From Escherichia coli O127:H6 str. E2348/69 (GTDB lineage Bacteria; Pseudomonadota; Gammaproteobacteria; Enterobacterales; Enterobacteriaceae), in the NCBI RefSeq assembly GCF_000026545.1, contig NC_011601.1: 64,000 nt of DNA; one strand, 5' to 3'. The position numbers and the translations under genes were made by a program. The notes under the pieces are model-generated. The model worked only from the letters and a program-made list of their open reading frames with translations, made no database searches and was not told the DNA's origin. Of this stretch, positions 21,585 to 24,051 are shown one piece after another. Within the stretch, counting starts at the first letter, position 1. Every line of letters begins with the position of its first letter.

Positions 21585-23102
21585 TTAATCAAATGATGTG
21601 GCCAGTTCAATTAATTCAATGTAATTATGTAAGGCATAAAAAGATGTATTCAGACCATTCTCTATAAGGGCTCCTTGCAAATACTTTATAGCTGTATCAC
21701 CATCAATAGGGCCTTGTTGAGATATAATCATTAGTGAATTTTGCCCATTGTTTTTTATACTTGATTTAAGCATGTTTATATTATTAATAAAATACAATGC
21801 AACATCTAAGTAATTTATTAATGTTAAATTTATTTTGGGCTCAATCTGTGAGATGAATAATCTACTGCTCGCCGTTCTATAGATATAATTGACACCTATT
21901 CTTTGCTGATTTGTATCAAGATTTAATTCAAGGATGGCTTGAGAAACACCTTTTAAATTGGAGCTTTGCTTTATCGAATCAGTGAAACGTTGTGCTGCAT
22001 TTCTTCGACCAATTAGTCCATCTATAATTTGACGTTCCTTATCATATATAATCATTAGCGAAATTATAAAAATATAATCTACTTTCTTTTTGACTAAATC
22101 AGATTTAAGAATGTCTATTAACCTTTCAGTATTTCGGATTGAGTCTCTTAGATTTAACCCAAATGCTTCAAATACGTTGGAAATATTTATTGAAAAGTCT
22201 TCTAATGTTGCTGTTAGTGGGTGTGTTTTTGATGTGATATTTTCAAAATCGGTACCAATATAATCACCAACAACACCATTAATTAAATCTTTAAGCTCAG
22301 GTTGTTTTAAAGTAAATCTTCTATGAAAAAAACGGCCTAAATAGTCATTTGCGGAAAAATCATTACCGTAAACATTCTTGATTGAATGTTGTAATTGATC
22401 TGTGTCAGTAGCAATAATAAAGACAAAATTTTTAATATCGAATATATGTTTAACAATCTCTAAAAGAGAAATTGCATAATCTGGCCTGCATCTGTCTAAT
22501 TCATCTATAAAGATAAATATAGGACATGAAAAACTATTTTCATATGCCAACCTAGACCATAACGTTAGTTCTTTTTTTAATACCTTAATGCTCTTCAGTT
22601 TTTCCTGGTGTTCCTTCAGCATTATTAATGAGGCTTCTTTGGCTATATCACCTACGTTATCTACTCCTGCATAAGTCTTGATTAGGCCAGATATGATTTC
22701 AGGTAGAACACCTTTTGTAAAGCGTCCGATAGCATGGCCGCTTTGTATCAATCGAGCATCAAGTTTTCCTGCATATGTTTGCAATTGTTGTGACAAAGAA
22801 GAAAAAAGGGTTAAAAATGCATCATCAGAAAAGTCTTGCTTCCAGGCATCAATGTAAACGCATGGGTGTGCATCTTTTATTGAGTTATAAAATCTCTTTA
22901 TGAAAAAACTTTTACCAGCTCCCCATTCTGCATTAAGGTTGATTACCGTGTTGTTCTTTTGCCCCTTTTCCTTAAGATAAAAATATAGATATTCTGCATA
23001 GTGTCTCCGATTAAGTTTGTCTTTGGAAAGAATTTCCTCTTCGTCGTCTAATATAAAGGTAGTTTCTTCATCCCAGTTCCAATTACAATCACCACATTTC
23101 AC
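21585..23102 (-). CDS. KAP-family P-loop NTPase (cargo; candidate defence/abortive-infection protein)
   Basis: Walker A in NAEWGAGKSFF and Walker B in IFIFIDELDRCRPD, the spacing and context typical of KAP NTPases; AT-rich; not part of P2 or 186 core. Confidence 0.7.
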   Translation of the reverse strand: MKCGDCNWNWDEETTFILDDEEEILSKDKLNRRHYAEYLYFYLKEKGQKNNTVINLNAEWGAGKSFFIKRFYNSIKDAHPCVYIDAWKQDFSDDAFLTLFSSLSQQLQTYAGKLDARLIQSGHAIGRFTKGVLPEIISGLIKTYAGVDNVGDIAKEASLIMLKEHQEKLKSIKVLKKELTLWSRLAYENSFSCPIFIFIDELDRCRPDYAISLLEIVKHIFDIKNFVFIIATDTDQLQHSIKNVYGNDFSANDYLGRFFHRRFTLKQPELKDLINGVVGDYIGTDFENITSKTHPLTATLEDFSINISNVFEAFGLNLRDSIRNTERLIDILKSDLVKKKVDYIFIISLMIIYDKERQIIDGLIGRRNAAQRFTDSIKQSSNLKGVSQAILELNLDTNQQRIGVNYIYRTASSRLFISQIEPKINLTLINYLDVALYFINNINMLKSSIKNNGQNSLMIISQQGPIDGDTAIKYLQGALIENGLNTSFYALHNYIELIELATSFD

Positions 23103-23127
23103 TATGAAGTCTCCATGAAAAATTTAC

Positions 23128-24051
23128 TTAATGTAAACAACTTATAATAACTTTTGCAATAAACTCAATGTCTGTAAGCGAACATTCAAAAGAGTGATTT
23201 TGGGATGAAATATAAACTCGTCCTTTAGGTAGTCGAGTTATCATTCTAAATGAATTCTCTCCATCAATATTTACTAGCCACTTACCATCATGTACATCTT
23301 TAAAACCCATTTCACATATTAATTCAGAGTCTTCGGTAGATACTACGAATGCATTTTTTAAATTGGAAGGTAGAAAGCATGGGTCAAATAAATATGAGCC
23401 ATCATTTATTAACTTGCCATTGATTAATACTTTTTTCACTAATGTTAAAGTATCTTTATTTTTTGCGTTTTTCATTTCTCCTGTACCAAATGAAATCCAT
23501 TCAATAGAATGGCCCGTTTCTATTGCACACTGCAAAACCCAGTCTGCAGGAAAAATGTCACGCATGTATCGTGTGGCTAATGTGCTTTTTGAAATACCTA
23601 GGTGATCAGCTAATGCTTGGCGCGTTTTGTAACCGTAAGCCTCGACAATTCGTTCTATTGTTGCCTTACCCCCTCGGTTAAAATTCATGAGTTTTTCATT
23701 ATCGAACTTTATAGTGGGAATGTATACTTCATTGCAAAGGCCATTAACGGCATGTTTTTCAGAATATTGCTCTGATGAAGGAGCAGTATCTGAACCAAGA
23801 ACTAACCATTCAATTGATGCTCCTGTTTCTATGGAACATATAACAACCCAATCTGCAGGAAAGGTATTACGTGCATATCTGTTGGCCATAGTACTTTGGG
23901 AAATACCTAGATGATTACATAATGCCTGTCGTGACTTGAAGCCATAGGCTAGGAGTATACGCTCAATAACTTTTTGCCCTCCACGATTCTGCATAACTAT
24001 TGCTTTCAGATCGTTTTTGATATGGCTAAATTTTAATTTTTGAGTTGACAT
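23128..24051 (-). CDS. CI-repressor paralog with two tandem N-terminal DNA-binding repeats and one C-terminal repressor-like domain
   Basis: Two ~60-aa repeats (IERILLAYGFKSRQALCNHLGIS...; IERIVEAYGYKTRQALADHLGISKSTLATRYMRD...) close to the N-terminus of the adjacent CI; C-terminal half homologous to CI C-terminal domain. Confidence 0.7.
   Translation of the reverse strand: MSTQKLKFSHIKNDLKAIVMQNRGGQKVIERILLAYGFKSRQALCNHLGISQSTMANRYARNTFPADWVVICSIETGASIEWLVLGSDTAPSSEQYSEKHAVNGLCNEVYIPTIKFDNEKLMNFNRGGKATIERIVEAYGYKTRQALADHLGISKSTLATRYMRDIFPADWVLQCAIETGHSIEWISFGTGEMKNAKNKDTLTLVKKVLINGKLINDGSYLFDPCFLPSNLKNAFVVSTEDSELICEMGFKDVHDGKWLVNIDGENSFRMITRLPKGRVYISSQNHSFECSLTDIEFIAKVIISCLH

Follow-up and report, generated by a model that had tools for sequence, protein, structure and literature searches.

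A KAP-family NTPase gene as candidate anti-phage cargo, and a chimeric second repressor, between cI and int of a 186-like prophage of Escherichia coli E2348/69

What are two extra genes doing between the repressor and integrase genes of a temperate phage? In phage 186 these genes adjoin, with cI and int overlapping by 1 nt in the pL operon of the reference annotation, and for 186 at least the original prediction was right that int directly follows the repressor gene. The 64-kb stretch of DNA analysed here (the window) is 100% identical to enteropathogenic Escherichia coli (EPEC) E2348/69, O127:H6, and carries a 186-like (Peduoviridae) prophage that is integrated beside rcdA and extends to an ogr-like gene near position 54400. 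Between its cI and int lie a gene for a 505-residue protein with a KAP-type NTPase domain (hereafter KAP) and a gene for a second CI-type repressor (CI2). We conclude with moderate confidence that the 505-residue protein is a single-gene defence against phages, of the KAP type (PDC-S20), which the prophage carries as exchangeable cargo in the cI-int slot. By its family it belongs to a kind already known, and the slot is a hotspot that has already been noted in outline. The genes are arranged as follows.

20446-21498, minus strand: int, tyrosine integrase of 350 residues (phrog_1, E 1e-71; RefSeq context)
21585-23102, minus strand: KAP NTPase, 505 residues (open reading frame with Pfam and PADLOC matches)
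23128-24051, minus strand: CI2, 307 residues, CI-type protein with two helix-turn-helix (HTH) domains (Pfam domains, segment identities)
24102-24671, minus strand: cI, resident 186-CI-type repressor of 189 residues (phrog_4, E 1e-44; RefSeq)

The open reading frames (ORFs), their coordinates and the gaps of 86, 25 and 50 bp from int through KAP and CI2 to cI all agree with the earlier description of two co-oriented genes packed between int and cI. The start of cI is the ATG at 24671 in RefSeq (189 residues), and the ORF list runs to a GTG at 24677 (191 residues).

The KAP NTPase and its relatives

Both the KAP-type Walker motifs read from the sequence in the original prediction and the PF07693 match that it expected were confirmed. 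The Pfam domain KAP_NTPase covers residues 32-293 (E 1.2e-45; model positions 1-248 of 293), and W60, G61, G63 and K64 of Walker A (W60-GAGKS65) as well as I199 to C205 of Walker B (F196-IFIDELDRC205) are invariant in 48 homologues. PADLOC, proposed earlier as a check on the locus, assigns KAP to the candidate defence family PDC-S20, all four profiles of which match (best PDLC04959, E 5e-78, residues 20-389; PADLOC score thresholds not applied). CI2, cI and int gave no PADLOC match, and no other PADLOC component is adjacent to KAP. In PHROGs the protein belongs to phrog_8614.

About 930 relatives of roughly 500 residues are found in Enterobacterales, Aeromonas and Pseudoalteromonas. Homologues lie between a 186-type cI and int in Klebsiella (79% identity), Enterobacter (62%), Yersinia (51%) and a second E. 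coli lineage (34%, 483 residues), and the order CI-(0-2 genes)-KAP-int was present in all 29 IMG/VR relatives with full-length similarity in a scan with the family alignment. More distant relatives are solo genes in chromosomal islets. The ratio of nonsynonymous to synonymous substitution rates (dN/dS) against the 79%-identical Klebsiella homologue is 0.08, and judged by this comparison the gene is under purifying selection.

The AlphaFold model, calculated from 48 sequences and confident (predicted local distance difference test, pLDDT, 82.5; predicted template modelling score, pTM, 0.71), has an N-terminal beta-hairpin, an NTPase core with a helical insert, a helical lid and a hypervariable C-terminal domain (residues ~366-465) without recognised fold. 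Against the Klebsiella homologue dN reaches 0.29 in residues 366-465 and is 0.08 in the NTPase core, and in three divergence classes the identity of residues 366-465 is 45%, 19% and 14%, compared with 87%, 72% and 45% for the P-loop region. Helical insert 95-190 is modelled as soluble helices, and no transmembrane segment, hydrophobic stretch or signal peptide was found in KAP (highest 19-residue Kyte-Doolittle mean 1.43). Many members of the KAP family, though not all, have transmembrane helices in or beside the P-loop domain, and the feature is not obligatory; the 505-residue protein is a soluble variant and its membership stands.

Among known systems, PDC-S20 resembles KAP in being a single gene of ~450-500 residues and in giving the best profile match; this match ends before the C-terminal domain of KAP, and PDC-S20 is itself a bioinformatic candidate. 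The closest fold to the model is that of RADAR RdrA, a protein that forms heptameric rings. RdrA is larger (~800 residues) and has other C-terminal domains, the likeness is at the level of fold only, and no RdrB adenosine deaminase gene lies in 20446-25560; membership in RADAR was rejected. PifA of the F plasmid, the founding 'P' of KAP, excludes T7 and is membrane-associated. It shares with KAP the NTPase core (PADLOC PifA model, E 9e-17) and the character of a single protein borne on a mobile element, but the alignment is confined to residues 26-274 and to positions 15-262 of the 720 in the profile, and KAP has 505 residues and no hydrophobic segment. As the NTPase part alone aligns, we rejected membership in PifA. 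Qat (QatABCD) was also rejected, since only a local QatA match was obtained (PADLOC E 7e-14; NCBIfam 43 bits vs a cut-off of 600) and the neighbouring genes are repressors and int, with QatB, QatC (QueC-like) and QatD (TatD-like) absent.

Experimentally studied KAP proteins offer a further comparison, made here by domain descriptions only. KAP NTPase single-gene defences of Enterococcus protect against phages and need Walker B, and EF_KAP is reported not to be abortive (PMC12632615); Reve, a KAP-domain single-gene system from a P4 hotspot, protects E. coli and has ORC-like Foldseek hits. EF_KAP and Reve resemble the protein studied here in being single-gene KAP NTPases, borne on mobile elements, with a C-terminal region of no known fold, whereas EF_KAP differs from it in having two N-terminal transmembrane helices. 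KAP probably works like PifA or the single-protein sensors of the EF_KAP type; on the PifA pattern, which is the best guess, it would sense a protein of the phage and then abort infection.

Two gene families recur upstream of KAP in other lineages. A family of ~160 residues precedes it at several of the compared loci (L016 5470-5952; L126 2310-2792; L137-L139) and also stands beside KAP in a chromosomal islet of Pectobacterium, where it is 90% identical to a prophage copy. A coiled-coil family of ~312-338 residues precedes KAP elsewhere (L011 4986-5969; L123, L125), and L126 has both families. Searches of these neighbours (160 and 327 residues) in Pfam and PADLOC returned only coiled-coil or insignificant matches; the two families may be partners of KAP or separate cargo.

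The cI-int slot and its cargo

Gene content between int and cI in related prophages proved to be variable. IMG/VR was scanned with the integrase, and the best 80 of at least 598 relatives, all with an Int at least 98% identical, were compared. The 79 interpretable loci hold at least 11 alternative cargo sets, in the following proportions, which are indicative only because they describe the top 80 loci of a redundant database.

orf63 only: 48 loci
558-residue gene: 11 loci
double-HTH CI and 589-residue gene: 5 loci
CI2 and KAP as in the window: 4 loci
324-residue gene: 3 loci
orf63 and 443/446-residue gene: 3 loci
other unique sets: 5 loci

Cargo beyond orf63 is present in 31 of the 79 loci, and in 25 of these 31 it includes a gene recognised by PADLOC as a validated or candidate defence. 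By their profiles the 558-residue protein is PD-Lambda-1 (E 2e-120), the 589-residue protein, found in five sister prophages, is Old (E 1e-234), the 443-residue protein is another KAP of PDC-S20 (PDLC04956, full-length, E 2e-171), and the 400- and 359-residue proteins are PDC-M18A and PDC-M11A; five further slot cargo proteins had no PADLOC match. Old and PD-Lambda-1 are validated defences and stand in sister prophages at exactly the position of KAP. Three KAP lineages (505, 483 and 443/446 residues), mutually 24-35% identical, all occupy the cI-int slot. On this survey the slot between cI and int in 186-like prophages is a genuine hotspot for defence genes.

It is not, however, the less explored slot that the original prediction suggested it may be. 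[quoted passage not shown] The region 7878-9100 of L005 is a further minor cargo position according to the last of these. Like the P2-like hotspots (old/tin, Z/fun) and the cI-int position of the Vibrio K139-like phages, the present slot is a fixed site with conserved flanks and swappable defence cargo; it differs from them in belonging to an E. coli 186-like clade that integrates at rcdA and in lying within the lysogenic operon and not between gpA and the portal gene.

The boundaries of the insertion can be read from the prophage of E. coli ATCC 8739 (L002), which occupies the same attachment (att) site. Homology in blastn extends over 20301-21560 (96%) and 24061-25600 (92%), with none between, and in the ATCC 8739 sister prophage ~293 bp with orf63 occupy the place of the 2.5-kb cassette. 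Guanine-plus-cytosine (GC) content is 0.29-0.37 over ~21400-24400 and 0.46-0.53 in the flanks. The elements at the two edges are as follows.

21561-24060, minus strand: imported CI2 and KAP cassette, 2.5 kb, low GC (blastn vs L002; GC)
24057-24086, minus strand: remnant of orf63, 9 codons (MLGKAFVVV and stop), with the start codon at 24086 and the stop 5 nt before the CI2 ATG
21554-21525, minus strand: promoter-like TTGACC-18-TAAATT with the palindrome TTGACCAGTGGTCAA (scan hit; begins the conserved left flank)

The right recombination junction, 24060/24061, truncates orf63. Intact orf63 begins MLGKVFFVVLSC... and is found in 48 of the 79 sister prophages; its product of 63 residues has conserved cysteines and an N-terminus like a signal peptide (MLGKVFFVVLSCSLLL...; L002 3240-3431, L023 6621-6812), and may be the YdcA family protein that some RefSeq records name among the features of the region. 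Since the start codon of orf63, 8 further codons and a stop are left, the arrangement in the window is, by this comparison, a derived one that arose by an illegitimate junction (24060/24061). The left boundary, ~21560, is common to every cargo variant compared, and in all of them the TTGACC-18-TAAATT element lies at the slot edge, ~30 bp upstream of the int start. This suggests that int has its own regulated promoter at 21554-21525, perhaps the reason why the slot tolerates insertions; the element may be an int promoter or operator not present in phage 186, whose cI and int overlap.

The int-KAP-CI2-cI-cII block is present in 16 of 5426 complete E. coli genomes (at least 96.8% identity), compared with ~1300 that have related int/cII. 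On this distribution KAP and CI2 are accessory and not core genes, as the original prediction supposed. Carriers of the cassette were isolated from humans, dogs, pigs, river water and produce, and neither the KAP nor the CI2 ORF is broken in any of the 7 other copies examined. The cassette has also moved, since it occurs (~99.5% identity) on another backbone, where int shows 89 codon differences (69 synonymous, 20 non-synonymous). This copy, from strain 100181 (L103, NZ_JBRERE010000002.1 123548-129150), is in a 150-kb record labelled as a plasmid; its cassette and int adjoin a serine acetyltransferase gene, pointing to a different integration site or backbone, or to a mislabelled contig.

The annotated operon of phage 186, in which pL serves cI-int-orf69 and a terminator follows, agrees with the predicted position of KAP and CI2 in the lysogenic operon. 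A scan of the minus strand between cI and int found no strong terminator and a good one after int, at 20386-20365, analogous to that of 186; by this analogy the hairpin is likely the end of the leftward (lysogenic) transcript. The hairpin and the elements upstream of cI are as follows, with the early rightward genes in the order of phage 186.

20386-20365, minus strand: terminator-like hairpin with T-run, just 3' of int (terminator scan)
24672-24796, strand not assigned: lysis/lysogeny switch region of 125 bp, from cI to the apl/cox-like gene (sequence reading, comparison with other switches)
24797-25018, plus strand: apl/cox-like gene, early rightward (RefSeq)
25051-25560, plus strand: cII, early rightward (RefSeq)

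The switch contains a pR-like TTGACG-17-CATGTT, a promoter assignment made by inference, and the palindrome TGCGATCGCA. The cI-switch region has 92% DNA identity to its ATCC 8739 counterpart.

Elsewhere in the prophage, gpA (27452-29866) and the portal gene (33074-34102, minus strand) flank the classical P2 hotspot, which holds a Shosta-like pair of the 'DprA-PRTase' type at 31510-33049 (plus strand). It consists of a PRTase-like ORF of 191 residues (PADLOC ShosT, E 4e-14), absent from the RefSeq annotation, and a DprA-like protein of 324 residues (ShosA, E 3e-70). In the region ~36500-47000 (L104 10180-21348) RefSeq flags a frameshift in the tape-measure gene and a truncation of a virion morphogenesis gene; the tail-sheath and baseplate clusters are separated by a hypothetical gene of 381 residues and a recombinase (invertase-like) gene. 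Because of the frameshift marked in the tape-measure gene the E2348/69 prophage may be defective, which is relevant to any induction.

CI2 and the double-HTH repressors

CI2 had been described as a double-HTH CI paralog. The two CI-type HTH domains are there, as Phage_CI_repr matches at residues 28-89 (E 1e-25) and 130-194 (E 3e-27), followed by Phage_CI_C at 207-302 (E 2e-25), but the protein is no duplicate of the resident cI. Tandem duplication was rejected because the segments of CI2 are 39-53% identical to cI compared with 68-76% to two other lineages. Residues 1-200 (HTH1, linker, HTH2) are 74-76% identical to the double-HTH CI of the H15/4LV2017 type and 60% to the Klebsiella type. Residues 201-307 are 68-71% identical to the 186-residue cI that precedes KAP in Klebsiella prophages and 37% to the H15 type, and positions 20487-23646 of the window align colinearly, with 77% DNA identity, to the cI-KAP-int block of Klebsiella. 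By these segment identities CI2 is a chimera of a heteroimmune 186-like phage repressor, carried in with the cargo. In the simplest history a crossover in the conserved stretch coding for HTH2 would have joined a double-HTH front to a cI-KAP-int back, and CI2 and its cargo would then have been set downstream of a cI and switch of the ATCC 8739 type.

Double-HTH CIs of ~312 residues are the sole repressor, adjoining the switch, in E. coli H15, WP4-S18-ESBL-08, Klebsiella phage 4LV2017 and others (gene positions L019 3087-4028, L020 3110-4054, L003 2903-3844 and L027 4176-5114). Their first HTH region (residues 21-77) is almost invariant across members that carry different cargos, and between their switch regions there is almost no difference (H15 type: TTGACATATTCTTTATGCGAACCTATTCTCCGTTTTGTGAAGTTTTCGTCAC). 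The recognition helices are invariant in the group and identical in CI2 (GISQSTMANRYAR, SKSTLATRYMRD). We found no paper describing the double-HTH CI architecture.

CI2 shares with the CI of phage 186 the Phage_CI_repr HTH, Phage_CI_C and a place at the head of the leftward operon, and is unlike it in having two HTHs per chain, no adjacent switch and a recombinant origin from two repressor lineages. It lies downstream of another cI and not beside a switch with cognate operators, which is not the placement of an immunity repressor. Only 8-9 nt of donor upstream DNA are retained: the -35 hexamer of the donor pR overlaps the CI2 ATG, and the remaining promoter and the operators are lost. CI2 has a weak Shine-Dalgarno sequence and no promoter of its own. 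The 64-kb window contains no match to a donor-type (H15-like) operator; therefore any cognate target of CI2 would be foreign. No donor phage with CI2 as sole repressor followed by KAP was found. Exact copies of CI2 all share the tandem arrangement, and its nearest double-HTH relatives are at most 62% identical. Synonymous and nonsynonymous changes among cassette copies number 2:2, 1:1 and 0:2, too few to show selection. The class of double-HTH CIs and the captured repressor in tandem are the less expected elements of the locus.

Competing explanations and their consequences

If KAP is a defence, its gene would be transcribed in lysogens on the leftward cI...int transcript, as in phage 186. The hypervariable C-terminal domain would recognise a component of an infecting phage, recognition would lead to a nucleotide-dependent KAP oligomer, ring-forming like RdrA or STAND-like, and the oligomer would keep the phage from developing, whether through abortive infection (as with PifA) or by interfering directly (as reported for EF_KAP). 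Several points weigh against this reading. The case from location is indirect: in 48 of the 79 sister prophages (~60%) the slot holds just a small secreted protein, and for several cargos there is no defence annotation. The PDC families are candidates only, and we found no paper naming PDC-S20 or the RefSeq protein WP_000649630. Distant relatives in Pseudoalteromonas and Aeromonas are solo among housekeeping genes and not in obvious defence islands. That KAP is transcribed from pL is argued by analogy with 186; a scan for promoters found 16 sites where chance predicts 15.9, which leaves none assignable by consensus, and two weak hairpins lie within the region, at 21523-21504 (adjoining the int ATG) and at 23512-23497. 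The mechanism is conjecture, as the search with the KAP family profile found no sequence relative in the PDB and no effector domain is recognisable in KAP.

Two readings would deny KAP a part in defence. One gives it a role in the phage life cycle or in host physiology, such as induction control, membrane signalling or a virulence-related moron in EPEC. KAP NTPases were first proposed as signalling scaffolds, T7 exclusion is possibly not the primary role of PifA (quoted in PMC12632615), and what the slot holds by default is no defence gene but one for a small secreted protein; but KAP has neither transmembrane helices nor a signal peptide, its hypervariable C-terminal domain fits a sensor in an arms race, and the validated Old and PD-Lambda-1 alternate with it at the exact position, so that we regard such a role as very improbable. 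The other sees in the cassette a neutral scar or selfish passenger, a by-product of mosaic recombination in which KAP brings no benefit in E. coli and CI2 is a decaying relic. This accords with the clearly illegitimate right junction in orf63, with the rarity of the block (16 of 5426 genomes) and with a frameshifted tape-measure gene in an element that may be defective. It is nevertheless unlikely, given the dN/dS of 0.08 kept by KAP over a long divergence and the same slot kept across several genera, the two ORFs intact in all copies from hosts of diverse origin, and the movement of the cassette to the backbone with the divergent int.

The remaining readings concern what CI2 has to do with KAP. 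The original prediction treated the two genes as one module, and in its strong form this would be an obligate two-gene system with CI2 as dedicated regulator or sensor of KAP. The genes are indeed 25 bp apart, co-oriented and always together in this lineage. Homologues of KAP (34-79% identity), however, follow a single ordinary cI without a double-HTH paralog; those at 79%, 62% and 34% do so with the same ~25-bp spacing and no second repressor, and the 25-bp spacer together with the C-terminal part of CI2 is the colinear homologue of the Klebsiella cI-KAP junction. Of the native DNA upstream of it CI2 retained little, and KAP is not preceded by an operator-like repeat. Because such homologues do without the partner, CI2 is, on present comparisons, not required for KAP and the two are not an obligate pair; the two-gene system is highly improbable.

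A looser association is easier to entertain. CI2 might be a working second immunity repressor, complementing KAP, against phages of the double-HTH group that use the same integrase and rcdA site; it would be made from the resident lysogenic transcript and bind the operators of incoming phages, with no physical interaction with KAP. Double-HTH CIs are the sole repressor in many 186-like phages of E. coli and Klebsiella, their switch regions are nearly identical to one another, CI2 has the identical recognition helices and is intact in all copies examined, donor-type operators are absent from the resident prophage, and ~14% of sister prophages at the rcdA att site have the double-HTH repressor type. 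Yet the C-terminal oligomerisation domain of CI2, at 37% identity to the double-HTH class, may no longer permit cooperative repression, and the weak Shine-Dalgarno sequence, the missing promoter, the few substitutions among copies and the restriction of the tandem arrangement to one lineage also speak against it. We therefore put it forward tentatively, as a possibility that is not the expected outcome. The combination, in which one transcript provides two layers of exclusion, CI2 against the rival immunity group at rcdA and KAP sensing unrelated phages through a hypervariable C-terminal domain of new fold and working with no recognisable effector domain, is more doubtful still.

Should KAP be confirmed as a defence, it would be a tractable E. 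coli member of the soluble KAP/PDC-S20 class, without recognisable effector domain and with RdrA as nearest structure, and the standing of the cI-int slot of 186-like coliphages as a third hotspot for defence genes, with expression from the lysogenic operon, would be firm. The natural swaps of cargo at one att site (Old, PD-Lambda-1, three KAP lineages and five unannotated proteins) are themselves a list of candidates. If the reading of two layers is true, temperate phages can take the repressors of rivals as defence cargo, and double-HTH CIs would be a new architectural class of the 186 switch. The tandem repressors allow a simple test of whether prophages turn captured repressors on their competitors.

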